From assembly GCA_034421015.1 (NCBI GenBank), contig DAOUKT010000003.1:5152-69151 (forward strand): a stretch of DNA of 64,000 nt, read 5' to 3'. Shown in pieces: positions 10,647 through 46,294 of this stretch. Made by a program: the position numbers and the translations under genes. Position 1 is the first letter of the stretch. Every line of letters begins with the position of its first letter. Source of the DNA: Dehalococcoidia bacterium (GTDB taxonomy: Bacteria; Chloroflexota; Dehalococcoidia; Lucifugimonadales; UBA2985). The notes below the pieces were generated by a model that made no database searches, was not told the DNA's origin, and saw nothing but the letters and a program-made list of their open reading frames with translations.

Positions 10647-10679
10647 GAGACCACCTTTTGAGGTGGTCTCTGTCTTTGT
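10647..10679 (+). terminator. terminator-like/attenuator hairpin in the 5' leader of NYN copy 1
   Basis: GAGACCACC-UUUUGA-GGUGGUCUC (9-bp stem) followed by UGUCUUUGU. It lies between the predicted promoter and the TTG start. The paralogous leader keeps the stem through a compensatory A-U to G-C change. Confidence 0.4.
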
Positions 10680-10692
10680 GAGTGAGCAACGG

Positions 10693-11322
10693 TTGATCAC
10701 TAATCTCTATATTGATGGGTTCAATCTCTACTACCGCGCCCTGCGCGGAACACCGTTCAAATGGCTGGATCTGAGTAAACTGGCTGTAGTCCTGTTTCCC
10801 GGGGATACCATTAACCGTATCTGCTATTTCACCGCCCTCCTTGAAGCTCGTCCTGACGATCCAAGCCAACCTCAAAGACAACAGGCCTACCTCAGAGCAC
10901 TTGCTACCCAGCCGGATGTTGCCATCTACTACGGAAACTTCCGGTCAGGCGTCAAGCGCCGACCACTGGCTCAGCCAGTGCCTGGCCTTCCCACATACGT
11001 GCAGGTAAGGGACTCAGAGGAGAAGGGTTCGGACGTAAACTTGGCTACTCAGCTTCTCGTAGACGGTTTCAACGGCGAATATCAGCAGGCGGTAGTTGTG
11101 TCCAACGACGCGGATTTCGCCGGAGCGATGAGATACGTGCGAGATTTCCTGGGCCATCGAGTAACCCTGGTCAATCCAGACCCTAGACACCCAAGCTCCA
11201 GAGACCTGGCGATGGCTGCAACATACGTAAGACGCCTCTGGAAAAGCCACTTGAGGGCGAGTCAGTTCCCGGAGACTCTCGCGGACTCAGTCGGTGTCAT
11301 CACGAAACCTGCAGGCTGGTGA
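10693..11322 (+). CDS. NYN-domain (LabA/DUF88-like, PIN-related) putative ribonuclease, copy 1
   Basis: ORF track 10663-11322. The start is probably TTG 10693 (LITNLYIDGFNLYY), which is shared with the paralogue. ...EEKGSDVNLATQLL...AVVVSNDADFAGAMRYV matches the NYN acidic-residue pattern. Confidence 0.7.
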   Translation: MITNLYIDGFNLYYRALRGTPFKWLDLSKLAVVLFPGDTINRICYFTALLEARPDDPSQPQRQQAYLRALATQPDVAIYYGNFRSGVKRRPLAQPVPGLPTYVQVRDSEEKGSDVNLATQLLVDGFNGEYQQAVVVSNDADFAGAMRYVRDFLGHRVTLVNPDPRHPSSRDLAMAATYVRRLWKSHLRASQFPETLADSVGVITKPAGW

Positions 11323-33137: not shown

Positions 33138-34805
33138 ATGAAGACTCAGACCATCGGGCTAGGCGCACTGGCCGGCGTCTTGCTCATTGCGCCTATAGTT
33201 GCAGTGATGTACGTGGCGGACCACTGGCTCGACTTCTCGTTTGCGCCCTATGACGTCTTCGACTGGGTTGCCCGAATTCTGCCCGGGCCGGTCATTACAT
33301 TCGGCATTGACCTGATGATTGACAGCCTGGAAATGCTGGGACTCAACGTCGCTGCCACGGCGAAGACTGCCGAACATATCCAAGCGGTGCTGGCGTTCGG
33401 CATGGCCGGAGTGGCGGCAAGCATCATCGTGTACATTGTTGTTGGACGCTGGCCTGCCCGCAGCGGACCCAGTCTTGGCCTCCTGGCGGGCGCTGTCCTG
33501 GGCTTGCCCATCGCGATGATCTCGGCAAGCATGTCCCAGGTCTCGACCGCCCCGTCGATCGTCTTCCTGTGGGTCCTTGGCTTGTTTTGCGTCTGGGGCG
33601 TCACAACGGTCGCCACGGCCCGCAGGCTGCTGCCCCAGTTCTCCTCAACGACCGGCGGTCCGTCGTCATCGGAGCTTGAGGCGAACTCCGTGCAGGTCGT
33701 CGGCAGGCGGCAGTTTCTCATCCAGATGGGGGCGGCAACGGCCACCATCACGGTTGCAGGCGCCGGCCTCGGGCGCGTCCTCGAAATCAACGAACGCAAT
33801 CGCCTGGAAGCCGAACTGGAGGAGATGAAGGCCTACCAGTCCGCGCCCCCGTCGGGTATCGAGCTGCCCAACGAAGACGCCGCTGTCAAACCTGCCCTGG
33901 GCACGCGGCCCGAGTATACCGCCGTTAGAGACCACTACAAGGTCTTCATCCGGTCGGAGCCAACGGTGATAGATGGTGAAACGTGGACCCTGCCGATTAC
34001 CGGACTCGTGGACAACCCGGTCACCCTAACCCTGGACGACCTGCGCACAAGGTACGAGGCCCGCGATGAGTTCGTCACTCTGAGCTGCATCTCCAACCGG
34101 GTGGGCGGCCCCCTGATAGGCACCACCTACTGGACCGGCGCCAGCCTGCAGGACATCCTTGCCGACGTGAGTCCCCAGGAGGACGCCCGCTACCTGTACA
34201 TAACCTGCGGCGACGGCTTTCATGAGACAGTCGATCTTGACTTGATCAACTCCGACAAGCGGGTCATGCTCGCTTACAACTGGGACGGCAGACCGATTCC
34301 GTTCGATCACGGGTTCCCGCTGCGGATCTGGATTCCGGACCGCTTCGGCATGAAGCAGCCCAAGTGGATCACCGGAATAGAGGTGATAGCCGACTATGAG
34401 CTGGGCTACTGGGTCAGTCGCGGCTGGTCAGTGGAGGCGCTGGTCAAGGCCACGTCTGTGATTGATACCGTGGCCGTTGACTCGGTGATCGAGGACGGCG
34501 ACCGGAAGCTGGTCCCGATTGGTGGAATCGCCTATGCCGGAGCGCGAGGCATCTCCAGGGTGGAGGTGCTTGTTGACAACGAACCGGAGTGGCGCATCGC
34601 GGATCTGCGCACCCCGCTCTCAGATGTTTCCTGGGTAATATGGCGTCTCGATTGGCCGTTCGAAGAGGGACGCCACGACTTCCAGGTCCGCTGCGTGGAG
34701 GCGGACGGGACTCCGCAGATCAAGTTTGTGGGCCCCCCCAGACCGGACGGAGCAACCGGAATCCACCGCAAGTCAGAAAGGCTGAGAGACATAGAGACGA
34801 CTTGA
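33138..34805 (+). CDS. molybdopterin-dependent oxidoreductase (sulfite-oxidase fold) with N-terminal membrane domain
   Basis: ORF track. It has about 5 N-terminal TM helices. DEFVTLSCISNRVGGPLIGTTYWTGASL and GFPLRIWIPDRFGMKQPKWI are typical of SUOX-fold Moco domains. Confidence 0.8.
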   Translation: MKTQTIGLGALAGVLLIAPIVAVMYVADHWLDFSFAPYDVFDWVARILPGPVITFGIDLMIDSLEMLGLNVAATAKTAEHIQAVLAFGMAGVAASIIVYIVVGRWPARSGPSLGLLAGAVLGLPIAMISASMSQVSTAPSIVFLWVLGLFCVWGVTTVATARRLLPQFSSTTGGPSSSELEANSVQVVGRRQFLIQMGAATATITVAGAGLGRVLEINERNRLEAELEEMKAYQSAPPSGIELPNEDAAVKPALGTRPEYTAVRDHYKVFIRSEPTVIDGETWTLPITGLVDNPVTLTLDDLRTRYEARDEFVTLSCISNRVGGPLIGTTYWTGASLQDILADVSPQEDARYLYITCGDGFHETVDLDLINSDKRVMLAYNWDGRPIPFDHGFPLRIWIPDRFGMKQPKWITGIEVIADYELGYWVSRGWSVEALVKATSVIDTVAVDSVIEDGDRKLVPIGGIAYAGARGISRVEVLVDNEPEWRIADLRTPLSDVSWVIWRLDWPFEEGRHDFQVRCVEADGTPQIKFVGPPRPDGATGIHRKSERLRDIETT

Positions 34806-34814
34806 TCAGGCTCT

Positions 34815-34855
34815 GTGCTCAACGTGATCTGGCGTAGACGGGCCTGCAGCCAGCC
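34815..34855. repeat. repeat A, copy 2
   Basis: See 30845-30885. In this copy it is directly adjacent to the intact vapBC promoter. Confidence 0.5.
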
Positions 34856-34878
34856 GAATCGTCAGCTTCCTTTCGGCA

Positions 34879-34907
34879 TTGCCATGAGCATTGCTTTGGC
34901 CCATAAT
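34879..34907 (+). promoter_or_regulatory. vapBC promoter TTGCCA-17 nt-CATAAT
   Basis: Read directly from the sequence. It is duplicated, with a 16-nt spacer, at 32866-32893. Confidence 0.4.
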
Positions 34908-34948
34908 GTAAGGCGTTGGTTGATTTAGCAATGGAGGGAGGCGCCGCC

Positions 34949-35182
34949 ATGATAGAGTCCGGCATTACTTCCAAGGGCCAGACCACGCTGCCCAAGGCCG
35001 TCCGGGAGGCGCTGTCCGTCCAGGCCGGGGACCGGATAAGGTACGTAATCGAGGGCAGCGAGGTCCGCATCCTGCCCGTGCGCCCCATCGACAGGCTGTA
35101 CGGCGCGCTGCAATATGATGGCCCGACCGTCACGCTGGAGGACATGGAACGCGCCATCGTCGACGGGGCTGCCCAGGCGTGA
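34949..35182 (+). CDS. vapB: AbrB/MazE/SpoVT-type antitoxin (VapB-like)
   Basis: ORF track 34916-35182. The start was moved to ATG 34949, 7 nt after GGAGGGAGG. MIESGITSKGQTTLPKAVREAL is the SpoVT/AbrB swapped-hairpin motif. Confidence 0.75.
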   Translation: MIESGITSKGQTTLPKAVREALSVQAGDRIRYVIEGSEVRILPVRPIDRLYGALQYDGPTVTLEDMERAIVDGAAQA

Positions 35183-35586
35183 TAGCCGTTGACACCAACG
35201 TCCTGCTCCGCTACCTGGTGCGCGACGACGCTGATCAGGCAGAAGCGGCCCGGTTGCTTCTTGAGGGAATATCGTCCGAGAGGCCGGGCTTCATCTGTCG
35301 TGAAGTCGCAATCGAGGTGGTCTGGGTGCTGGAGAGGGCCTACAAGTTCACGCGGGCACAGATAGCGGATGTGATTATTGAGTTGGCGGCTACGGACGGC
35401 GTTGTCATTGAAGAGGCGGAGGACGTGATGCGCGCCGCCATCCGCTACCGGCAGACCAACGCCGACTTCTCAGACCTGATGATTCTCGCCGCCGCAGAAC
35501 GCGCCGGCGCCGGGCCCCTCTACACCTTCGACCGCAGGCTTGCGCGGCTGGTGGGCGCGGCGCTGGTGGGGGCTGGTGAGGTGTGA
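35179..35586 (+). CDS. vapC: PIN-domain toxin VapC
   Basis: ORF track. Contains IAVDTNVLLRYL...SDLMILAAAERAG and overlaps vapB by 4 nt. Confidence 0.8.
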   Translation: MIAVDTNVLLRYLVRDDADQAEAARLLLEGISSERPGFICREVAIEVVWVLERAYKFTRAQIADVIIELAATDGVVIEEAEDVMRAAIRYRQTNADFSDLMILAAAERAGAGPLYTFDRRLARLVGAALVGAGEV

Positions 35587-35608
35587 GGGTGGCGGTGGAG
35601 GTGGAGGT

Positions 35609-35629
35609 GGGGGGGGGGGGGGGGGGGGG
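35609..35629. repeat. 21-nt poly-G homopolymer preceded by a (GGN)n tract
   Basis: Counted directly. GGTGGCGGTGGAGGTGGAGGTGG is followed by G x21 (counting the final GG), then TGGATTGGATCTAGCTAGC. It marks the left edge of the AT-richer islet. Confidence 0.9.
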
Positions 35630-35731
35630 TGGATTGGATCTAGCTAGCATTTCTGTCTGCTGCGCGAAAGCAATGCGGAGGAGCCAAAAGTTTTCTCATT
35701 GCCTATACTTCATCGCTGTCCAGAGAAGTCC

Positions 35732-36790
35732 ATGAGTTTACCATTCCCAGAAAGACATGTCGGCGAGACAGACTCCGTATACCGGAGACTGCCTCACCAT
35801 GTTTTCGTCATGAAGCCCTCCCCGCAAGGCACTGATATGAAGGAGTTTCGGGGCCTCGTCGAAGATTTCAAGCACGGCATTGTCGCAAAATCGTTGCTCG
35901 AAAATGAAACTATTCCTCACCATTCACTGGGCGGCCAGGAATTATCACTCCAATCTCTGAAGGAAATGGTCACTAACATTTTGATCGCCAGTTCAATCGA
36001 GTGGATTCGTGGTTGTGTAGGTGTTTGCATAATGTACCATCCCGAACAACGAGGGAAATTAATCTCTCTGCTGTCTAGGCTAGTCGATTCTGGCGGGCCT
36101 CCAGGCGAGAAGCTACTAGGCGTATCGCACGGAAATGAAGCGTTCGCTTTCAAGGTCAAACGCCACGAGGCTAGACTCATGCCTACTGACAGCATGTTTA
36201 TTTGGCTTGAGAATCCATCGGATCCCGTCGCTGAGATTATCGTTCCGAGTGACCGTCGTGGGCCGCTAACCCTAACCACCATCTACGAAAGTAAACAGAA
36301 GGTGGAAAATTTCGCTATGGTGTCATTGTGTACACACCTAGTCGCGGAAGGCGATACCACACCTGACGAGCTGAGTTTCCGATACGAACCTCTCGGGAAC
36401 GCCTTCCCTGATTTTGAACTGCTTGTACGTGACCAGGAGTGGGCAGTTGAAATAACACGCATTGAGACAGGAATGGTCTCATACCTTCGAGTGTCCGAGC
36501 CGATGGAGAAGCACTCCTTCGACAAAGCTGCCCAGAGACAGGTAACTGAGTCCGGGATCATCGAGGCTTTGACTAAAGCAATAGACGACAAAACGAGGAT
36601 ACGAGAGGAGTGTTCTCGTTATTCTCGTGCCTGCCTCCTCTTGGTGGATGTAGTGGATTATGTGGATGAAGTGTCCCCTGACGTCTGGAGCGGCCTCGAC
36701 CTATCTGCGTTCAACGTCGTAGCGTTGGTCAAGTTGGATGGCAGAGTGAATTTTATTAAGGGGACTCATGCTTTTGGGTCTGTGTGGTAG
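35732..36790 (+). CDS. hypothetical protein (islet gene A); weak PD-(D/E)xK-like pattern in the C-terminal half
   Basis: ORF track 35699-36790. The start is uncertain (TTG 35699, ATG 35732, 35810 or 35837). FPDFELLVRDQEWAVEITRIE is loosely nuclease-like. I recognised no confident family. It is AT-richer than its surroundings. Confidence 0.5.
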   Translation: MSLPFPERHVGETDSVYRRLPHHVFVMKPSPQGTDMKEFRGLVEDFKHGIVAKSLLENETIPHHSLGGQELSLQSLKEMVTNILIASSIEWIRGCVGVCIMYHPEQRGKLISLLSRLVDSGGPPGEKLLGVSHGNEAFAFKVKRHEARLMPTDSMFIWLENPSDPVAEIIVPSDRRGPLTLTTIYESKQKVENFAMVSLCTHLVAEGDTTPDELSFRYEPLGNAFPDFELLVRDQEWAVEITRIETGMVSYLRVSEPMEKHSFDKAAQRQVTESGIIEALTKAIDDKTRIREECSRYSRACLLLVDVVDYVDEVSPDVWSGLDLSAFNVVALVKLDGRVNFIKGTHAFGSVW

Positions 36791-36815
36791 ATTGCGAGGA
36801 GATTGGAGGTTCTGC

Positions 36816-37580
36816 ATGTCCGCAAGGTCAGACAACAACTGCTGCGATTGTGAGGAACGACACCCTCGGCAAGCTTTCATTTCCCATGCCGGGAAGGACG
36901 CAGAAATCGTAAGAGAAATCGCTAAATCATGCTGCGCCGCTCAAATCACCCCGTACCTGTTCGAGTACAGTGCTGAATTTTCTCAGTCCAATATAGACAA
37001 GGCTAGGACGATTGCAAATGAGATTAACAACAGTGATATATTCTTAGTTGTCCTAGGTCCGTCCGTATCGAATGCCTATTGGACTCAAGCTTGGATAGGC
37101 TTTGAGATTGGCGTATCTATAGGTGTAGACTTAGCGTCCGACAAAACTCGGGAAAGGGATTATTTCTCCAGTAAAATCTTCGTTCTTCGGGACATCCACC
37201 AGGAAATCAAGGTCTCGGTGCCACGAGTAGACGTTCTCTTCCTCTACGACTTCAGCCAAAGCTGGGATGATATTCGCGACCTACTGACATTTATGTCAGC
37301 CTATATTTCTGCATCGGGCGCTCAGGTGTTCCAACTTGGTAACGCGTTGAGACAGCGGATCATGACGGGGAAGGCAAAGTGCGAGAACGCAACCTGTGAA
37401 GGCGATTATGACGTGGTGATTCCCTTTAATAGTGCGAGGGCACTCGAATCTTGGGAGCAATGCAATGACAAGGAGTTCAAAAAGTTGCAGTGGATCAAGA
37501 AGGAGTTTCAGGCGAAATTCAACCTTAGTTGTCCATCATGTGGGAAGAAGGTGCATTGCGAAATCTCTCGGTCGCTCTAG
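36816..37580 (+). CDS. TIR-like domain protein with C-terminal zinc ribbon (islet gene B)
   Basis: ORF track 36768-37580. The start was moved to ATG 36816 after a GGAGG RBS. AFISHAGKDAEIVREIA...SDIFLVVLGPSVSNAYWTQAWIGFEIG matches the bacterial TIR pattern (FISxxxxD ... lvvlSp..s.S.W...E). The C-terminus has CENATC...CPSCGKKVHC. Confidence 0.6.
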   Translation: MSARSDNNCCDCEERHPRQAFISHAGKDAEIVREIAKSCCAAQITPYLFEYSAEFSQSNIDKARTIANEINNSDIFLVVLGPSVSNAYWTQAWIGFEIGVSIGVDLASDKTRERDYFSSKIFVLRDIHQEIKVSVPRVDVLFLYDFSQSWDDIRDLLTFMSAYISASGAQVFQLGNALRQRIMTGKAKCENATCEGDYDVVIPFNSARALESWEQCNDKEFKKLQWIKKEFQAKFNLSCPSCGKKVHCEISRSL

Positions 37581-37710
37581 TCGGAGGAAAATGCTTCTAA
37601 GTGATGACTTGCTGTTCGCGGGCATGACCACATATGGCTTTGACTTGACTTTGGCCCCCAAGCGATGACTTGTTGGGAAAGCTGGCTCGTGGGGATATTA
37701 CCAACTCCCC

Positions 37711-40278
37711 CTACCGCACGTGGTCTGCGTAGTCCATGCCGATGTGGCCCAGGTCCTTGAGGTTGTCGTACTCCGCCTCTGACAGGCCCAGCACCTCATG
37801 GTACACGTAGTCGTTGTCCTCGCCCAGGCGCACGGGCGGCTTGCGCACCTCAAAGGGAATCCCCGTCATCCTGAACGAGGTGCTTGGGTAGAGGTGCGTG
37901 CCCACCTCCGGCGCAGTGATGGGCACAAAGAACCCCCGCTCCTTCAGGTGCGGGTCGTTGAAGACGTGGTCCTCGTGCATCAGGTACCCCGCCGGAATGC
38001 CCTCGCCCTGGAGGCGGTGGAACAGGTCGATGGAGTCGTGGCTTGAGGTCCAGGCCGCAATGATATCGTCCACGGCGTCGTGGTTGGCGCGCAGGGAGTC
38101 GATATCGACAAAGCGGTTGTCCTCAATCAGGTCCGGTCGCCCCATGAGGCGGCAGAGGGCCTGCCACTGCTCGATGCGGCCGATGGAGATGGCGATCCAC
38201 TCGTCGTCGCCGTCGCACGGGTAGGCGTTCTGCACGTGCCACCAGTCGCGGTTGCCCGGCGGCCCGGCCACGCGCCCGTTGATGGTGTAGTCCATGTAAA
38301 GCTCCCCCAGGTGGGGCAGGAAATTCTCGCCCAGGGAGATGTCGATGTACATGCCCCGGCCCGTCTTCTCCCGCTGGTGGAGGGCGAGCATTGCGGCGAT
38401 TGCGACCGTCACGCCGGATGAGGCGTCAGTCGCCACCGAGCCGGGCGCGCCGTCGATGCCCATGTCCGGGTAGCCCGACACCGATGCGTGGCCCACGGCC
38501 GCTTCGAACTGCGTCCCGATGCCCCGGTACCAGCTCCACGGGCCGGTCTGCCCGAAGCCGCAGACGGAGATCATGATGAGGCGGGGGTTCCACTTGCTGA
38601 CCACGTCCCAGGAGACGCCCAGGCGGGCCATTGAGCCGGCGGCGTTGTTCTCAATGAAGAGGTCGCTCACCTCCACCAGGCGGCGGAAGACGTCCTTTGC
38701 CTCCGGCTGCCCAAGCTCCAGGGTCATGCCGGACTTGTTGCGAGAGTGGGCGTTGAAGTTGGCGGCGCGGTTCCAGGGCCGCGGGCCGGGGTCGCGGTCG
38801 GGGTAGGGCGACGTGAGGGCCGACATCTGCGACTCCTTGCTGGGCCGTGCGAACTGGCCGCGGCTGGTGGCAGGGAGGTGGTTGAGGGTCTCGACCCGGA
38901 TGCACTCCGCGCCCATGTCCGCCAGGAACATTGTCCCGTAGGGCCCGGCAAAGATGACTGTCATATCGATGATGCGGACGCCGTCCAGGGGGAACCGCTT
39001 CTCGGCGGGCGGCTTGCCCTGAGCCGCCGGCGACGTGCTCAGCCCGGCAGTCGCGCTTGATGCCGGTCTGTCGGACTCCTCCCAAGGCGAGCCGACACCC
39101 TCCAGCGCCTCCCTGTTGTGCTGGCCGAGGGTCGGCGCGGGCCGTCGGATTCGCCACCAGCGGCCCTTGGTGAGGATGGGCGCGCCCGGGTATCGGAAAC
39201 TTCCGGCCACCGGGTGGTCGATCTCAGTGAAGTAGCCCCGGAAGTCAAGCTGCGGGTTGTCGTCCACAACCTCGTCTACGGGCATGTTCGCGCCGATGAG
39301 CAATCCAGCCACCTGGCACTCGGCCACCGCCTGCTGCTTGGTGCGGGCCATGAGCCAGGGCAGCCAGATGTCCCTCTCAAACTCCTCCTTGCCCTCCATG
39401 CTCTGCTGCCCGAATGGAGGCGCAAAGCGGGGGTCCTCCAGAAGCTCCGGCATGCCCAGGGCCGCGACGGTCAGGGGCCAGCGCTGGCCCCCGCCGGATA
39501 CGGAGATGTAGCCGTCCTTGCACGGGTAGTGGCCCTGGGGATAGCCGCCCCTGGTGCTGGGCCCGCGACGCTGGCCGCGCTCGCCGTTGTACTGGTAGTT
39601 CACAAGGCTGGTCAGCCTGCCGTTGATGGAGCACATCTGCGTCTCGTGTATCGATACGTCGATGTGCTGGCCGCCCAGGCCCTCGTACCGCTGGCCGTGC
39701 CAGGCGAAGAGGGTGGCCATCGCGGCGTTGTTGCCGGCCTGGAACTGGACGTGGTTGCCGCCAAGCTTCAGGGGGTAACGCTCCGGCAGGCCCAGGGCGT
39801 GCATACGGCCGCCCATCCCGAACAGCGTCAGCTCCGAAGCCTCGTAGTCACTGTAGGGGCCGGTCTGCCCGAAGTTGGAGATGGAAGTCACGACCAGGTT
39901 TGGGTTGACGGCCTTGAGCGCGTCGTAGCCCAGGCCCAGGCGGGCCATGACTCCCGGCCGGAAGCTCTCCACAAGGACGTCGGCGTCCTTGACCAGGGCC
40001 TTCAGGGCGTCGACGCCCTCCGGCGTCTTGAGATCAAGGGTGATGCCCCGCTTGTTGGTGTTCAGGAACAGGAAGAGGCCGCTCTTTTCGGGATGAGGCG
40101 CGTCGCCGGGGAAGGGGCCGAGGGCGCGGGCGTAGTCGCCGGAGCCGGGCCGCTCGATCTTGATGACGTCGGCCCCGAAGTCGGCCAGGAGCTTGGTGCA
40201 GTAGGGGCCTGCAATGCCGTGAGTAAGATCTACGATACGAATATCGGAGAGGGGCTGGGGTTCCGTGCGCTCTTCCAT
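37711..40278 (-). CDS. tandem double-domain family III CoA-transferase (N-type half plus C-type half)
   Basis: ORF track, 855 aa. IRIVDLTHGIAGPYCTKLLADFGADVIKIERPGSGDYAR starts half 1 and VRIIDMTVIFAGPYGTMFLADMGAECIRVETL starts half 2. It is a close paralogue of 43775-46294. Confidence 0.85.
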   Translation of the reverse strand: MEERTEPQPLSDIRIVDLTHGIAGPYCTKLLADFGADVIKIERPGSGDYARALGPFPGDAPHPEKSGLFLFLNTNKRGITLDLKTPEGVDALKALVKDADVLVESFRPGVMARLGLGYDALKAVNPNLVVTSISNFGQTGPYSDYEASELTLFGMGGRMHALGLPERYPLKLGGNHVQFQAGNNAAMATLFAWHGQRYEGLGGQHIDVSIHETQMCSINGRLTSLVNYQYNGERGQRRGPSTRGGYPQGHYPCKDGYISVSGGGQRWPLTVAALGMPELLEDPRFAPPFGQQSMEGKEEFERDIWLPWLMARTKQQAVAECQVAGLLIGANMPVDEVVDDNPQLDFRGYFTEIDHPVAGSFRYPGAPILTKGRWWRIRRPAPTLGQHNREALEGVGSPWEESDRPASSATAGLSTSPAAQGKPPAEKRFPLDGVRIIDMTVIFAGPYGTMFLADMGAECIRVETLNHLPATSRGQFARPSKESQMSALTSPYPDRDPGPRPWNRAANFNAHSRNKSGMTLELGQPEAKDVFRRLVEVSDLFIENNAAGSMARLGVSWDVVSKWNPRLIMISVCGFGQTGPWSWYRGIGTQFEAAVGHASVSGYPDMGIDGAPGSVATDASSGVTVAIAAMLALHQREKTGRGMYIDISLGENFLPHLGELYMDYTINGRVAGPPGNRDWWHVQNAYPCDGDDEWIAISIGRIEQWQALCRLMGRPDLIEDNRFVDIDSLRANHDAVDDIIAAWTSSHDSIDLFHRLQGEGIPAGYLMHEDHVFNDPHLKERGFFVPITAPEVGTHLYPSTSFRMTGIPFEVRKPPVRLGEDNDYVYHEVLGLSEAEYDNLKDLGHIGMDYADHVR

Positions 40279-40393: not shown

Positions 40394-40579
40394 ATGCGAA
40401 CCATTGAGGTGGTGCTGTACAGGGAAAAGACGGCCTGGGTAGCTCAGGCTCTCAACGTGGACGTCTCATCATTCGGCGACACGCGGCAGGAGGCGCGGGC
40501 GGCCATTCAAGAGGCCCTGGAGCTCTACTTTGAAGATGCGCCGGACGCGGAGGTCTTGATCAGCGAGGTGTCGTCTTAG
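40394..40579 (+). CDS. HicB-like (UPF0150) antitoxin-family protein with no hicA seen
   Basis: ORF track 40388-40579. ATG 40394 follows an AAGGAGG RBS. VAQALNVDVSSFGDTRQEARAAIQEALELYFE matches the HicB N-domain pattern. Confidence 0.6.
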   Translation: MRTIEVVLYREKTAWVAQALNVDVSSFGDTRQEARAAIQEALELYFEDAPDAEVLISEVSS

Positions 40580-40611
40580 TGCACTGGTAGAGTTTGGAGA
40601 AAGGAGCCAAG

Positions 40612-41199
40612 ATGCTAAATCCAGAGGATGTTAAAGAACTCAATCCAATATTTGAGGCAATCCATCAGAGACTTGGGATTGCCCTTGAGGGAAGTGAGCA
40701 AGAGATTACGGAAGAAGCTTGTGGCCACTACATAGCAGCGTTGCTTCTGATGGAAGAGCTTGTTGAACAAGTAACCCAGGAAGAAGGCCATAGCGTAAAG
40801 GAAGCTTTGAAACGCGTAGTTGATGCAGCCAACTCACCTGAAGGAGCCGGGGTGGCAGGAGGACTGGGAGGAGCGGCAGCGGCATTGTCTTTCACTGGGC
40901 TTGGAGGATTCGGAATAGCTGCCGGAGGAACGGCTGTTGGTGTATCGGGATTGGCTGGGGCTACAGTGGCATCAGGGGGCGCAGCGCTTGCTGGTGCGGC
41001 CGCGTTGTATCTGGCGTACAAGGGAGGCGCTGCGGCTTTGGAGACTGAACTGGGACAGAAGGCCGCTGGTCAAGTGGCGGATGCGGGCAATAAAGCTGCT
41101 GACCAAGCCAAATCTGCCGGAAATAGAGCGAAAGAGGGCTTTAGCAGATTTCGAGACAGGTTCTCCAAGTCTGAATCCAAGGAAACTACTGAAGACTGA
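40612..41199 (+). CDS. hypothetical Gly/Ala-rich (glycine-zipper-like) membrane protein
   Basis: ORF track 40594-41199. ATG 40612 follows an AAAGGAG RBS. The central GVAGGLGGAAAALSFTGLGGFGIAAGGTAVGVSGLAGATVASGGAALAGAAALYLAY region is followed by a Lys/Ala-rich charged tail. It lies in an AT-richer islet. Confidence 0.5.
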   Translation: MLNPEDVKELNPIFEAIHQRLGIALEGSEQEITEEACGHYIAALLLMEELVEQVTQEEGHSVKEALKRVVDAANSPEGAGVAGGLGGAAAALSFTGLGGFGIAAGGTAVGVSGLAGATVASGGAALAGAAALYLAYKGGAAALETELGQKAAGQVADAGNKAADQAKSAGNRAKEGFSRFRDRFSKSESKETTED

Positions 41200-41249
41200 T
41201 ATTGAGTTGCTTCAACCCGTATTGAGAATAGCCATTACCGGGCCTCAGT

Positions 41250-41279
41250 TTGACATTCATTGGGTATTAGTCATACTAT
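41250..41279 (+). promoter_or_regulatory. candidate promoter TTGACA-18 nt-TACTAT for phd-vapC
   Basis: Read directly from the sequence, 30 nt upstream of ATG 41309. Confidence 0.35.
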
Positions 41280-41308
41280 TAGCTAAGCAGATTGAAGGGG
41301 AGCGGGCA

Positions 41309-41545
41309 ATGGCAACGGTGAACGTCCACGAAGCAAAGACCCATCTGTCGCGCCTGCTGAAGCAGGTTGAGGCTGGTGAGGAGGTCATCATCGCCCGCAA
41401 CGGGGAGCCAGTGGCCCGTTTGGTGAGCAGCAAAACGCGCCGCAGGCGGCAACCCGGTTCCATGAAAGGCATCATAGAGATAGACGACCGCTTTTTTGAA
41501 CCGCTGTCGGAAGAGGAGCTGGCGGCCTGGGAGGGCAACGCCTAG
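41309..41545 (+). CDS. Phd/YefM-family antitoxin
   Basis: Internal ATG of ORF 40937-41545. MATVNVHEAKTHLSRLLKQVEAGEEVIIARNGEPVARLV is a typical Phd N-terminus. Confidence 0.8.
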   Translation: MATVNVHEAKTHLSRLLKQVEAGEEVIIARNGEPVARLVSSKTRRRRQPGSMKGIIEIDDRFFEPLSEEELAAWEGNA

Positions 41546-41548
41546 CGG

Positions 41549-41935
41549 ATGCGGCTCCTTCTGGACACCCACGCCTTTCTGTGGTGGATAGTCGATAGCG
41601 AGCGGTTGTCCCGGGCTGCCAGGCGGGCAATAGCGGACGAAGGCAATGAAGCGCAGATAAGCGCGGCGTCGGCCTGGGAGATTGCGACCAAGCACAGAAC
41701 GGGCAAAATGCCGGAGGCGGAGGCGTTAACCCTGGATATTGCCGGCGCTATGGTCAGCCAGGGCTTTGATGAGCTGCCAATTACCGTGGCCGACGCCGCC
41801 CGTGCGGGCGCACTTCCGGGTCCGCTCCGTGATCCCTTTGACCGGATGCTCATCGCGCAGACATTGTCGCGCGACCTTGTTCTCGTATCTAACGAGTCCC
41901 TCTTTGATAGGTACGGCGTGCGCCGCCTGTGGTAA
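41549..41935 (+). CDS. vapC: PIN-domain toxin VapC
   Basis: ORF track. Contains LLLDTHAFLWW...SAASAWEIATK...DPFDRMLIAQ. Confidence 0.8.
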   Translation: MRLLLDTHAFLWWIVDSERLSRAARRAIADEGNEAQISAASAWEIATKHRTGKMPEAEALTLDIAGAMVSQGFDELPITVADAARAGALPGPLRDPFDRMLIAQTLSRDLVLVSNESLFDRYGVRRLW

Positions 41936-42038
41936 CAGGAAAACGCACGCCGTCAAGGCATCCCTGAAATGGGGCAGGATTGCCAGAAAGGTACCCTCCC
42001 AGCATAGCGCATGCGGGTGTCTGCGTATCTCATTGCAG

Positions 42039-42067
42039 TTGACAGGCGGAATAGAACATGCTAATCT
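42039..42067 (+). promoter_or_regulatory. sigma70-like promoter TTGACA-17 nt-TAATCT for NYN gene copy 2
   Basis: Same architecture and spacing as 10583-10611. Confidence 0.45.
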
Positions 42068-42103
42068 TCTGCATACCACCCCTATCGCTTCGCCGGTAGG
42101 GTC

Positions 42104-42135
42104 GAGACCGCCCTCAAAGGCGGTCTCTGTCTTTG
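42104..42135 (+). terminator. terminator-like/attenuator hairpin in the 5' leader of NYN copy 2
   Basis: GAGACCGCC-CUCAAA-GGCGGUCUC followed by UGUCUUUG. The stem is preserved relative to copy 1 by a compensatory change. Confidence 0.4.
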
Positions 42136-42149
42136 CAAGAGAACGAAGT

Positions 42150-42779
42150 TTGATCACGAACGTCTACATTGATGGCTTTAATCTATATTACCGCGCCCTT
42201 AAAGACACCCCGTTCAGATGGTTAGATTTGAGGAAGCTGGCTGAGACTCTCTTTCCTGAGGATACGATTCAGAGGATATGCTATTTCACTGCAAGGCTCG
42301 ATACGCGCACCGGTAATCCTGGCCAACCGAGGCGTCAGCTCATATACCTGAGAGCCTTGGCCACGTTGCCGGGTTTTGAGATTCACTACGGAGTATTCCG
42401 CTCAGGCGTCAAGCGCCGCCCGCTGGCTGAACCGACGCCGGGTCTGCCGCCCTATGTTCTGGTGAGGGACTCGGAAGAGAAGGGATCAGACGTTAACCTG
42501 GCTACGCGCCTCTTGGTAGACGGGTTCAGCGGGGAATACGAGCAGGCGGTGGTCGTGTCCAACGATGCGGATTTTGCCGGCGCGATGAGATACGTGAGGG
42601 ACAACCTGAATTTGCGTTTAACACTGGTCAACCCGGACGCTAGGAGAGCAAGCCCGCTGGACCTGTCCAACGCCGCAACATACGTCAAGCGCCTGTGGAA
42701 GAGCCATCTGCGGCAAAGCCAGCTTCCAGACACGCTGGTGGATGAGGTTGGTGCCATTGCCAAGCCACCCGCTTGGTGA
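42150..42779 (+). CDS. NYN-domain putative ribonuclease, copy 2
   Basis: C-terminal 210 aa of ORF 41739-42779. TTG 42150 is the first canonical start after the promoter. The product is collinear with copy 1 (LITNVYIDGFNLYY...EEKGSDVNLATRLL...VVVSNDADFAGAMRYV). Confidence 0.7.
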   Translation: MITNVYIDGFNLYYRALKDTPFRWLDLRKLAETLFPEDTIQRICYFTARLDTRTGNPGQPRRQLIYLRALATLPGFEIHYGVFRSGVKRRPLAEPTPGLPPYVLVRDSEEKGSDVNLATRLLVDGFSGEYEQAVVVSNDADFAGAMRYVRDNLNLRLTLVNPDARRASPLDLSNAATYVKRLWKSHLRQSQLPDTLVDEVGAIAKPPAW

Positions 42780-43774: not shown

Positions 43775-46294
43775 CTACCGGACGTGGTCCGCGTAGTCCA
43801 TCCCTATGTGGCCCTTGGCCTTCAGGTTATCGTACTCATCCTCCGTGAGCCTGAGCACCTCGCGGTAGATGAAGTCGTTGTCCTCGCCCAGCCTTACGGC
43901 CGGCTTGCGCACCTTGAACTCCATGCCGGACATCTTGAAGGTCAGGCCAGGGTACAGGTGCGTGCCAATTTCCGGGTGGGTGACCTGCGTCAGGACGCCG
44001 CGCTCCCTGACGTGGGGGTCGTTGAGCGCGTGGGCGTCGTGCATCAGGTATCCGGCGACTACCCCCGCCCTCTGCAGCTCGTGGAACAGGGCAACGGGCT
44101 CCTTGTCGGCGGTCCACTCCCCGATGATCCTATCTACCTCGTCGTGATGCTCGCGCAGCGCTGCCATGCTCTCGAAGCGCGGGTCGTCAGCCAGCCCCGG
44201 CCTGTTCATCAGGCGGCAGAGAGTCGCCCACTGCTCCTGCTTGCCAATGGAGATGGCGACCCACTCGTCGTCACCAGCGCAGGGGTACGCGCCCTGCACC
44301 AGCGCCCACTGGTCGCGGTTGCCGGGGGAGCCGGCCACGCGCCCGTTGATGGTGTAGTCCATGAAAAGCTCGCCAAGGTGGGGCAGGAAGTTCTCGCCCA
44401 GGGAGATGTCGATGAACGCGCCTCTGCCGGTCTTCTCACGCTGGTGCAGGGCTATGGTGGCCGCCATAGCGACGGTGACTCCGGTGCAGGCGTCCGCGGG
44501 GACTGTGAGGGGCACACCCTCCGGCCCCATGTCCGGGTAGCCCATGACGGAGGCGTGGCCGTACGCCGCCTCAAAGGAGGTGCCGATGCCCCGGTACGCG
44601 GCCCAGGGCCCGGTCTGCCCAAAGCCGGTGATTGATATCATTATCAACCTGGGGTTCCACTCGCTGACCACGTCGTAGGTGAAGCCGAGGCGGGCTATGG
44701 AGCCAACGGCGTTGTTCTCGATGAACAGGTCGCTCATCTCGATCAGCTTGCGGAAGACATCCTTGCCCTCCGGCGTCCGCAGGTCGACCGTGATGCCGTA
44801 CTTGTTGCGTCCGTGGGCGTTGAACCCGGCGTAACGGTTCCAGGGCCTTTCGCCCGGGTCCTTGTCCGGGTACATGGACATTGGCGCGTTGGCCTCGGCC
44901 TCCCTGCTGGGCCTGGCGAACTGGCCCCGGCTGGTGGCCGAAAGCTGCTGCAACGTCTCCACGCGGACCACCTGCGCTCCCAAGTCTCCCAGGAACATGG
45001 TGCCGTAAGGCCCCGCCAGCACCACCGTCAGGTCAGCGATGCGGATGTCCTCCAGGGGAAGCTCCGCGCCGGAAGACCCGCCTGGGGTTGCGGGAGCGAC
45101 CGCCGATCTCTGACGCGGGGCGGCGGTCTCGTTCAAGACTTCCTCGGTGTGCTGTCCCAGGAGTGGCGCAGGTCTCCTTATGCGCCACCAATTGTCCTTC
45201 GTGAACACCGGCGATCCCGGGTACTTGAGCTTGCCTGCGACCGGGTGGTCGATCTCGGTGAAGTACTCCCGGAAGTCAAGCTGCGGGTTGTTGTCCACCA
45301 CCTCGTCTATGGTGTTGTATGGGGTGCACAGAAGCTCGCTGGCCTGGCACTCCTGGACAACCTCCTCCTTGGTCCGCTGCATGAGCCAGGGTATCCAGAT
45401 GGTGGTCTCGAACTCTTCCTTGAATGCGGAGTCCTGCGCGCCTTTGGCAACGCCGTATCGGGGGTGCTCGACCAGCTCCGGCCGGCCCAGAGACGCGGCG
45501 ACGCGAGGGAACCGCTGTCCGCCACCGGCAACGGAGATGTAGCCGTCCTTGCATGGGTACACCCCGTTGGGATAGCCGATCACACCCGTCCCAAGGCGCC
45601 GGCCCCTCATGCCGTTGTACTGGTAGGAGATTATGGTCATCATGCGCCCGTTGATGGAGCCCATCTGCGTATCGTGTATGGACACGTCGACGTACTGCCC
45701 GCCCATGCCCCGGTGTTTCTGTGCGTACCAGGCGAACATCGTTGCCATCGCCGCGTTGTTCCCTGCCTGGTACTGGACGTGGTTGCCACCAAGCTTCAGG
45801 GGGTAGCGGTCCGGCAGGCCGAGCCTGGTCATGCTGTTGCCCATTCCGAACAGCGTCAGCTCCGACGCCTTGTAGTCGCGGTATGGGCCGGTCTGCCCGA
45901 AGTTGGACACTGAGGTCATCACGAGGCCGGGGTTGATTGCCTTGAGCGCGTCGTAGTCCAGCCCCAGGCGGGCCATGACTCCCGGCCGGAAGCTCTCCAC
46001 CAGCACGTCGGCGTCCCTGACCAGGGACTTGACGGCATCGACGCCCTCCGGCGTCTTGAGGTCAAGGGTGACGCTCCGCTTGTTGGTGTTGAGGAACAGG
46101 AAGAGGCCGCTCTTTTCCGGGTGCGGCTCGTCGCCGGGGAAGGGGCCGAGGGCGCGGGCGTAGTCGCCGGAGCCGGGCCTCTCAACCTTGATGACATCGG
46201 CCCCGTAGTCGGCCAGGAGCTTGGTGCAGTACGGCCCAGCTATGCAGTGGGTCAGGTCTATGATGCGCAGGTCAGACAGAGGTTGCTCTTCCAT
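43775..46294 (-). CDS. tandem double-domain family III CoA-transferase (N-type half plus C-type half)
   Basis: ORF track, 839 aa. It is collinear with 37711-40278 along the whole length. Confidence 0.85.
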   Translation of the reverse strand: MEEQPLSDLRIIDLTHCIAGPYCTKLLADYGADVIKVERPGSGDYARALGPFPGDEPHPEKSGLFLFLNTNKRSVTLDLKTPEGVDAVKSLVRDADVLVESFRPGVMARLGLDYDALKAINPGLVMTSVSNFGQTGPYRDYKASELTLFGMGNSMTRLGLPDRYPLKLGGNHVQYQAGNNAAMATMFAWYAQKHRGMGGQYVDVSIHDTQMGSINGRMMTIISYQYNGMRGRRLGTGVIGYPNGVYPCKDGYISVAGGGQRFPRVAASLGRPELVEHPRYGVAKGAQDSAFKEEFETTIWIPWLMQRTKEEVVQECQASELLCTPYNTIDEVVDNNPQLDFREYFTEIDHPVAGKLKYPGSPVFTKDNWWRIRRPAPLLGQHTEEVLNETAAPRQRSAVAPATPGGSSGAELPLEDIRIADLTVVLAGPYGTMFLGDLGAQVVRVETLQQLSATSRGQFARPSREAEANAPMSMYPDKDPGERPWNRYAGFNAHGRNKYGITVDLRTPEGKDVFRKLIEMSDLFIENNAVGSIARLGFTYDVVSEWNPRLIMISITGFGQTGPWAAYRGIGTSFEAAYGHASVMGYPDMGPEGVPLTVPADACTGVTVAMAATIALHQREKTGRGAFIDISLGENFLPHLGELFMDYTINGRVAGSPGNRDQWALVQGAYPCAGDDEWVAISIGKQEQWATLCRLMNRPGLADDPRFESMAALREHHDEVDRIIGEWTADKEPVALFHELQRAGVVAGYLMHDAHALNDPHVRERGVLTQVTHPEIGTHLYPGLTFKMSGMEFKVRKPAVRLGEDNDFIYREVLRLTEDEYDNLKAKGHIGMDYADHVR

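Follow-up and report, generated by a model that had tools for sequence, protein, structure and literature searches.

A low-GC two-gene islet in a Dehalococcoidia contig pairs a TIR-like zinc-ribbon protein with a predicted nuclease: a probable uncharacterised defence cassette

Introduction

Bacterial defence systems that combine TIR-type domains with diverse partners constitute a well-populated group, with 11 Thoeris types and about 30 predicted effectors (10.64898/2025.12.03.692087), as well as several NIR systems. DUF4062/NIR domains are TIR-like NADases that operate as abortive-infection effectors. Swarozyc, Evangelion and Vulcan are single proteins with an N-terminal NADase and a C-terminal sensor, and Vesta is a two-gene system composed of VstA and the dispensable phosphatase VstB; the catalytic glutamate is E97 in Swarozyc (KpSwz), E87 in Evangelion, E98 in Vulcan and E103 in VstA (10.64898/2026.05.01.722283, 10.64898/2026.06.25.731849, 10.64898/2026.09.04.749371). 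The present work deals with an islet of two genes, named A and B, located in a stretch of 64,000 nucleotides of the contig DAOUKT010000003.1 (assembly GCA_034421015.1) from a Dehalococcoidia bacterium; the whole stretch is referred to as the window and all coordinates are given on it.

Gene B encodes a TIR-like protein with a zinc ribbon and gene A a predicted nuclease that belongs to a family without a database name. Taken together, A and B are probably an uncharacterised defence cassette, and the pair most likely represents a rare variant, so far undescribed, of anti-phage systems of the known TIR-based kind. An initial annotation, made from the letters of the window only, had already proposed the islet as a candidate defence system. 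The computational checks that it suggested all had a favourable outcome, with the qualifications given below, and its claims are considered where the corresponding results are presented.

Results and discussion

Gene B encodes a TIR-like protein

The bacterial TIR pattern noticed in B by the initial annotation is supported by profile and structural comparisons. The protein exceeded the Pfam cut-off for TIR_2 (32.7 bits, cut-off 28, residues 21-92) and, marginally and more weakly, that for DUF4062 (27.2 bits, cut-off 24.7). Among 39 aligned members of the B family, TIR_2 was detected in 35 (E<=0.01), DUF4062 in 17 and Zn_ribbon_8 in 6. An AlphaFold2 (AF2) model built from the family alignment (pLDDT 86, pTM 0.85) shows beta-alpha alternation over residues 18-165 and a beta-rich domain with a beta-hairpin layout over residues 180-254. 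A Foldseek search of the PDB with this model gave 16 matches at E<=1e-3, with a best E of 4e-5, each to a chain from an entry that contains a TIR domain (SPARTA TIR-APAZ, RPP1, AbTir); SpbK, TIR-STING, ThsB and MyD88 were matched at weaker E values, just short of the 1e-3 threshold.

Invariant residues of the B family are F21, S23, H24, A25, D28 and E50, followed by W89, Q91, A92, W93, G95, E97 and G99, and the four cysteines of the CxxxxC...CxxC zinc ribbon, which had been read correctly from the sequence (Table 1). The N-terminal cysteine-histidine knuckle (C9-x2-C12-x3-H16) is nearly invariant. When B was aligned by hhalign with the TIR domains of ten Thoeris proteins listed in Table S1 of 10.64898/2025.12.03.692087 (probability 96.5%, E 8.8e-10), W93-I-G-F-E97-I-G was placed on the W-x3-E-[IV]-G catalytic motif of the Thoeris TIRs, with a 4-residue insertion. 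The glutamate of WIGFEIG that had been put forward as catalytic is E97, and it falls on the catalytic glutamate of the Thoeris domains in this profile-profile alignment. The PADLOC ThsB models matched B weakly (E 2e-4 to 1e-2, 12-19 bits). It was also observed that B carries a duplicated W-x3-W-x3-E turn.

Judged by sequence motifs and by the model, gene B is a TIR-like protein, in which the zinc-ribbon domain is likely to be a sensor or auxiliary domain, and by analogy with the systems described above B may cleave NAD+. The resemblance to Swarozyc, Evangelion, Vulcan and VstA lies in the N-terminal TIR-like domain that exceeds the DUF4062 threshold, the glutamate placed about 80 residues into it and the C-terminal auxiliary domain; like those systems, B is borne by mobile elements or defence islands and is sometimes encoded alone. 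In contrast to the DUF4062/NIR proteins, B matches TIR_2 better than DUF4062, uses a zinc ribbon as auxiliary domain and carries the additional N-terminal CxxC...H knuckle. As in Vesta, B is often accompanied by a strongly associated enzyme partner, which is perhaps dispensable, but the partner is nuclease-like and not a phosphatase. Pfam and NCBIfam comparisons revealed no homology of the B auxiliary domain or of the partner A to the Swz AUX domain, HEAT repeats or the VstB phosphatase.

Gene A encodes a predicted nuclease with a relocated lysine

No match to gene A was obtained in Pfam, PADLOC (2023), NCBIfam or PHROGs, and the family profile of A found only chance-level matches among PDB sequences. 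The A family comprises 96 clusters at 90% identity, and 91 A-like representatives were recovered at E<=1e-3 among 1.84 billion proteins. A sister clade of proteins of about 400 aa, about 20% identical to A and designated A', contributes 87 further clusters.

The AF2 model of A (pLDDT 85.7, pTM 0.78) contains, in its C-terminal half, the elements H188-206, E214-218, E228-232, E235-243, H273-293 and E300-306, that is, an alpha-beta-beta-beta-alpha-beta core, and this half also holds most of the polar residues that are invariant in the family: E192, E219-P-L-G, P226-D227-F, W237-A-V-E240-V-x-R243, E245, K287 and C301-L-L-L-V-D306. In this core helix 1 bears a glutamate, strand 2 opens with a PD and strand 3 carries an acid, as in the PD-(D/E)xK order. 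The helix-1 Glu, EPxG, FPD, ExT(R) and the helix Lys are kept across the A' clade, where the counterparts of D227, E240 and K287 are an invariant D, E and K and the E192 position is at least 90% conserved. The top fold matches in the PDB, although weak, were nearly all PD-(D/E)xK proteins, namely Bax1, FokI, EcoRV, CdiA-CT 4g6v (prob 0.97), XisH-like 2okf, RecU and Hjc, and those in BFVD, also weak, were described as MmcB-like, 'nuclease', restriction endonuclease, contact-dependent inhibition (CDI) toxin and VRR-NUC.

The PD-(D/E)xK reading, offered at the beginning as a weak resemblance, has been strengthened by the invariant residues, the core topology and the nuclease type of these weak fold matches. 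In core order, helix-1 glutamate, PD on strand 2 and acid on strand 3, A resembles the relocated-lysine PD-(D/E)xK nucleases (CdiA-CT Bp1026b, XisH-like, Hjc/RecU). A differs from PD-(D/E)xK nucleases in that the lysine of ExK is replaced by Thr or Ala, an invariant lysine being located on the next helix, and in that its N-terminal 180 residues have no counterpart. The invariant K287 could stand in for the missing lysine. From its conserved positions and modelled core, gene A is predicted to be, probably, a nuclease with a relocated lysine, and its product would accordingly be expected to cut nucleic acid.

A and B are associated in distant loci

Scans of genomes and metagenomes, together with look-ups of exact proteins, yielded 21 distinct loci, the window included, in addition to one indeterminate locus at a contig end (L016), and the loci were screened with the family profiles on six-frame open reading frames (ORFs); the metagenome contig scan with the B profile gave 2 loci only. 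A or A' is followed by B on the same strand in 10 of them (window, L002, L007, L008, L012, L020/21, L023, L025/26, L027 and L028), A or A' occurs alone in 8 (L001, L003, L004, L005, L006, L009, L022 and L024) and B alone in 3 (L017, L018 and L019). The spacing between both genes in the pairs ranges from -17 to about +146 nt, with 17-nt overlaps in L012 and L023. The L012 pair is a distant one, since its B is 38% identical to that of the window and the partner is a 410-aa protein 23% identical to the window A (hhalign 99.4%, E 1.6e-21). Ten further pairs of A and B clusters, whose longest contigs are equal in length, are candidate same-contig cases, and the two that were checked are both adjacent pairs. 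In 10 distinct loci, therefore, homologues of A and B lie next to each other, and the surroundings are of defence or mobile type, as would be expected if the initial annotation was right to treat them as partners.

For families as rare as A and B, the frequency of their association greatly exceeds what chance would give, and the association is ancient. At the same time it is facultative, and not obligate in either direction. No remnant of B was found in the A-alone loci by a profile search of all ORFs of at least 25 aa, and two of these loci (L001 and L009) are on OZ-series chromosome records, from neither of which a B homologue was recovered. Some pairs are decaying, with A frameshifted in L007 and cut by an insertion sequence (IS) in L008. 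In a 443-aa protein (P0133), present in 8 contigs, the longest of 5.0 Mb, residues 1-109 of a B homologue, WIGFEIG included, run directly into the second, C-terminal half of a recombinase of the large serine type; apparently the DNA between B and the recombinase gene, which are neighbours in L002 and L008, has been deleted.

These data also bear on the idea that A and B are two independent single-gene modules, defensive or selfish, that travel together as cargo with no functional interaction. Both genes do occur alone elsewhere, and defence genes cluster for reasons other than a common mechanism. However, in 10 of 10 pairs A precedes B on the same strand and at tight spacing, including the 17-nt overlaps, and the pairing persists at identities of 23% for A and 38% for B; moreover, both families are so small (91 A-like representatives in 1.84 billion proteins) that chance adjacency is negligible. 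Independent co-travelling modules are for these reasons considered rather unlikely.

Comparison with Thoeris

Thoeris likewise combines, in a two-gene operon, a small TIR protein and an enzyme that has an extra domain, and its predicted effectors include DNases (10.64898/2025.12.03.692087). Signalling of this type would imply that B, as a ThsB analogue, senses the trigger via the zinc ribbon and makes an ADP-ribose-derived messenger, which would be bound by the N-terminal domain of A, the effector, and free its nuclease. The alignment of B with the Thoeris TIR domains, including the W...E[IV]G motif, and the weak PADLOC matches to ThsB are consistent with this possibility, and so is the solitary B of L018, located about 12 kb from the A'-B pair of L023 in an arrangement that resembles the multi-ThsB islands. 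In a further development of the same idea, the locus would be a new Thoeris-like type in which A and A' combine an unknown receptor domain for a TIR-made nucleotide with a relocated-lysine PD-(D/E)xK nuclease, and a solitary A would listen to TIRs encoded elsewhere.

Other data fit this explanation poorly. A signal-dependent effector should rarely be found alone, but 8 of the 18 A loci have no B, OZ-series chromosome records among them, so that A is without any B in about half of its loci. The initial annotation had remarked that A does not show the SIR2, SLOG or Macro features of the known ThsA partners, and no such signal was found in A by Pfam, PADLOC or fold search; likewise, no sensor fold (SLOG, Macro, SAVED, CARF) appeared among the fold matches of its N-terminal domain. 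The conserved positions of the N-terminal 180 residues, approximately, are mostly hydrophobic, Pro or Gly, which is unlike a phosphate-binding signal receptor. Also unlike Thoeris, B is a marginal match to the ThsB models and the pair is not in PADLOC 2023. The B motifs (QAWIG, WIGFE and others) were not found in those tables of the Thoeris survey that could be consulted, a weak piece of evidence. Both the Thoeris-like mechanism and its version as a new type with an unrecognised receptor domain are held to be doubtful, although they are to be taken seriously. Given the facultative pairing, a ThsB with an unknown ThsA-like partner is neither the only reading of the islet nor the best one.

Genomic contexts of the homologous loci

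In other Chloroflexota, the A-B pair is again found on mobile elements and in defence islands. The A and B genes are 5-17 GC points under their flanks in most loci, with a gap of about 3-6 points in L009 and L023. Among the loci with defence genes, L004 (6566-15187) contains A, with no B, inside a Type I restriction-modification (R-M) operon in the order HsdM, HsdS, A, an unknown 156-aa ORF, PIN and HsdR. Defence genes embedded in Type I R-M loci are known from the PrrC/RloC-type arrangement, a classic site of latent abortive-infection nucleases. The position of A between hsdS and hsdR, with a PIN gene, is comparable in this one locus, but A is unrelated in sequence to PrrC and RloC. A GmrSD_N gene lies upstream of A in L005; B of L018 is found near HsdR, Abi_C and SocA_Panacea genes; the L028 pair is located among an AAA_15/21 ATPase with DUF4276, Mrr_cat, an integrase and IS21; and A' of L022 is near an N6_N4 methylase, an IrrE-like peptidase and a PDDEXK_13 protein.

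Other pairs are carried by elements resembling integrative and conjugative or integrative and mobilizable elements (ICE/IME). The cargo of L025/26 has the order T4CP, Replic_Relax, helix-turn-helix (HTH), PAPS_reduct, NYN, A, B, a further gene and a large serine recombinase, and in L025 HEPN and GmrSD genes are beside the element. Large serine recombinases are present on ICE/IME-like elements in L002, L008, L020 and L025/26; the serine recombinase genes lie 3' of B, or 3' of A in L005 and L006. Bare islets among metabolic genes are seen in the window, L024 and L027.

A role that is not defensive has to be considered at this point, since the pair could serve the carrier element, for instance in addiction and stabilisation or in DNA processing for integration or transfer. 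The T4CP, Replic_Relax, NYN and large serine recombinase genes around the pair in L025/26, L020/21, L002 and L008 agree with such a role, as do the toxin-antitoxin genes that flank the window islet and the A genes of L001, L005 and L006. However, there are no mobility genes near the pair or the solitary A in the window, L024 and L027, A is also located inside a Type I R-M operon, and bacterial TIR and DUF4062 domains are so far overwhelmingly immune. A mobile-element function is accordingly regarded as quite improbable, and the defence cassette is the preferred reading of these contexts. The proposal of the initial annotation that A and B are a candidate defence system stands insofar as the contexts fit it, and it is from these contexts that we infer defence; the tie between the two genes is a facultative one.

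Some further observations were made in these loci. The solitary B of L018 and the A'-B pair of L023, with its 17-nt overlap, are on the same 4.8-Mb contig, about 12 kb apart, and the island around both includes Type I HsdR, Abi_C and SocA_Panacea genes. A protein of 775 aa, without annotation, is encoded before the solitary B. An unannotated ORF of about 300 aa follows B in L025 (6833-7732) and L007 (11871-12836), with no match in Pfam, NCBIfam or PHROG, and the L007 ORF resembles a membrane protein. In L017, the 375-aa protein encoded next to B was considered SIR2-like by eye (VFVLGAGF...), and this idea was discarded because the protein has no Pfam match.

The NYN-A-B block of L025/26 is also present in L002, L007 and L020/21, and a three-gene system was therefore considered. 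NYN was dropped as a core component, because the NYN proteins are 77-88% identical, far more conserved than A or B, and because the window has two non-adjacent paralogues and NYN is absent from the other pairs. The window paralogues (10663-11322 and 42150-42779) show 77% and 83% protein identity to the NYN encoded 5' of A-B elsewhere; neither is adjacent to the islet, and the 10663-11322 copy is located between housekeeping genes.

Proposed function of the A-B cassette

According to the reading that is preferred here, tentatively and with a little less than even confidence as a whole, the islet would be a horizontally acquired two-gene anti-phage cassette of the abortive-infection type. B would be a TIR-like NAD+-cleaving enzyme, with an N-terminal NADase domain acting through E97 and a zinc ribbon that senses the trigger, whereas A would be an autonomous, metal-dependent nuclease of the PD-(D/E)xK type, with E192, D227, E240 and a lysine provided by K287, preceded by a family-specific N-terminal domain. 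Each protein is apparently able to work alone, since each has been found alone in other genomes. Where both genes form an operon the proteins would be co-translated and would probably constitute one complex, which may couple the recognition or cutting of the invading nucleic acid by A to the depletion of NAD+ by B, so that the infected cell is stopped. B is favoured as a self-contained sensor-plus-NADase on account of its DUF4062/NIR layout and of its occasional occurrence alone. What has been observed is the foreign composition of the islet, the TIR fold and motif of B, the nuclease-like conservation in A, the conserved synteny of A and B and the contexts of the homologues; the NADase and nuclease activities, the order in which one protein would trigger the other and the defence phenotype are inferences.

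Several results weigh against this proposal. Concerning the active site of B, an ungapped register puts W89-x3-W93 on the catalytic motif, with the tryptophan W93 and not E97 at the catalytic position, and the HMMER alignments of B to TIR_2 and AbTir end at residues 89-92, just before E97. W93 and E97 are separated by one helical turn and point to the same side, which leaves E97 as the sole acidic candidate at this place whichever register applies. Concerning A, the residue located two positions after E240 is Thr or Ala and not the canonical lysine of (D/E)xK, and no Foldseek match was better than E 1e-3, the best values being 5e-3 in the PDB (Bax1) and 1.8e-3 in BFVD (MmcB-like). For A there is no match in PADLOC (2023), NCBIfam or PHROGs, and B is barely recognised by these resources. 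With respect to the linkage, 8 of 18 A loci are without B and three B loci are without A, and the existence of A-only and B-only loci means that an obligate complex is not supported. Finally, within 10 kb of the islet the window contains no recombinase and no recognised defence gene, the only elements of this kind being toxin-antitoxin pairs.

Composition and organisation of the islet in the window

The drop in base composition reported initially after the poly-G tract is evident. At about 35600 the GC content drops from 0.62-0.65 to 0.47-0.51, and from about 37600 it is back at 0.60-0.69, the recovery being located at the end of the convergent CoA-transferase gene. The stretch 35631-37580 (1950 nt) has a GC content of 0.491, the minimum among all stretches of the same length in the 64-kb window; the mean of these stretches is 0.622 (sd 0.034), so that the islet lies about 3.9 sd under it. 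The GC content at third codon positions (GC3) is 0.54 in gene A and 0.56 in gene B, and 0.77-0.90 in the neighbouring vapB, vapC, Mo-oxidoreductase and CoA-transferase genes. The islet (35630-37580) is compositionally foreign.

As described at the outset, A and B are co-directional and separated by a gap of 25 nt, and all the peptides quoted at that time are present in the translations. The coordinates of the main features are listed in Table 1. The ORF of gene A opens at a TTG (35699), and 35732 has been taken as the start of the gene; a AGGAGAAG-like ribosome-binding site is found in the leader about 6 nt 5' of this ATG, within the part that is partly conserved in the A homologues.

Table 1. 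Features of the A-B islet and its borders, with coordinates on the 64-kb window.
Feature	Coordinates	Strand	Length	Description
Poly-G tract	35609-35629		21 G	Left edge of islet; sole homopolymer of at least 9 nt in the window
Gene A leader	35630-35731	+		Last ~60 nt partly conserved upstream of A homologues (alignment)
Gene A	35732-36790	+	352 aa	N-terminal alpha/beta domain (~1-180) without known relatives; C-terminal PD-(D/E)xK-like domain
Putative PD-(D/E)xK domain of A	36293-36790	+		Residues ~188-352
Candidate catalytic codon of A, D227	36410-36412	+
Candidate catalytic codon of A, E240	36449-36451	+
Candidate catalytic codon of A, K287	36590-36592	+
Candidate catalytic codon of A, E192		+
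Ribosome-binding site of gene B	36805-36809	+		GGAGG, 6 nt 5' of ATG, within the A-B spacer
Gene B	36816-37580	+	254 aa	CxxC...H knuckle (C9, C12, H16), TIR-like domain, C-terminal zinc ribbon
TIR-like (TIR_2 / DUF4062-like) domain of B	36867-37310	+		Residues ~18-165
Candidate catalytic Glu codon of B, E97	37104-37106	+		In W93-I-G-F-E97-I-G
Zinc-ribbon domain of B	37353-37577	+		Residues ~180-254; C189 and C194 (CxxxxC), C239 and C242 (CxxC)
B-to-CoA-transferase spacer	37581-37710		130 nt	Right edge of low-GC segment
CoA-transferase gene	37711-40278	-	855 aa	Convergent; tandem fusion of two CoA_transf_3 domains (two Pfam stretches)

The left flank of the islet is formed by a MazE/AbrB-type antitoxin gene and a PIN toxin gene (vapBC), and the right flank by the CoA-transferase gene. 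No sigma-70-like promoter was detected in the gene A leader, and a promoter and terminator scan of 35400-37800 gave nothing above the shuffled expectation. An Rfam scan of 34800-38000 found nothing credible, there is no tRNA within the 64-kb window, and a search for att sites, as direct or inverted repeats bracketing the islet, gave only short, chance-level matches.

Some other elements of the region were noted. The B/CoA-transferase spacer contains a 16-nt direct repeat, AAG(T/C)GATGACTTG(C/T)TG, at 37599-37614 and 37660-37675, 61 nt apart, which may be what is left of a recombination site or may have a regulatory role. Beyond the CoA-transferase gene there is a second lower-GC stretch (40394-42779, GC 0.52-0.57) with a 61-aa HicB-like ORF, a 195-aa Gly/Ala-rich ORF, a Phd/YefM antitoxin gene (41309-41545), a PIN toxin gene (41549-41935) and one of the NYN genes, so that accessory islets are located on both sides of this high-GC gene. 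A second double family III CoA-transferase gene (839 aa) is found at about 43775-46294.

The poly-G tract and the left junction

The poly-G tract lies directly 3' of the vapC stop codon and about 100 nt 5' of gene A, after a degenerate GGTGGAGGTGGAGGTG stretch. Because homopolymers of this kind may originate from two-colour sequencing chemistry, an assembly artefact, in which the islet would have been mis-joined to the vapBC contig through poly-G reads, has been weighed. In an ENA assembly, the 416-kb scaffold with A and B (L013) starts in the tract with 51 G, and vapC is at the end of a separate 42.5-kb scaffold (L015); a Logan contig (L014) also starts in the tract, with 24 G. At least one of the two assemblies that start in the tract is from the same sample as the vapC scaffold. 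As these two assemblies broke in the G run, the assembler used for the window bridged that point.

Nevertheless, the vapC scaffold L015 runs past the G run into 'ttgggatctggttggcattttt', a miscalled, degraded copy, of about 20 nt, of the islet start 'ttggatctagctagcatttct', which means that reads cross the tract. Three assemblies agree exactly on the right junction and its GC step, and the low GC content of the A and B homologues relative to their flanks in most other loci indicates that the foreign composition belongs to the genes and not to the assembly. An artefact is consequently judged highly improbable. The join between vapC and the islet is probably real, in view of the overlapping end of L015, and as far as this contig overlap shows the islet is not chimeric. 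The location between vapBC and the CoA-transferase gene given in the initial annotation is shared by three assemblies on the right side, and on the left side it depends on a join within the G run that is probably genuine. If real, the poly-G tract could be a slipped-strand (phase-variable) or G-quadruplex element upstream of the operon. No homologous locus carries such a tract.

Conclusions

The A-B pair was not found in PADLOC 2023 nor in the literature searched. Since TIR-based defence is so well populated, a further TIR-plus-nuclease operon would be no surprise to a specialist; what is new here is the partner family without a name in databases, the facultative pairing and the Chloroflexota setting. 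To our knowledge, Chloroflexota, and Dehalococcoidia among them, are almost absent from experimental work on phage defence.

The likely relocated-lysine site of A and the duplicated W-x3-W-x3-E turn of B are small structural curiosities. If the proposed function is true, the islet would add to TIR-based defence a configuration with a partner family that is named in no database, and the facultative pairing of two apparently self-sufficient modules would provide a case for how composite defence operons assemble on integrative elements.

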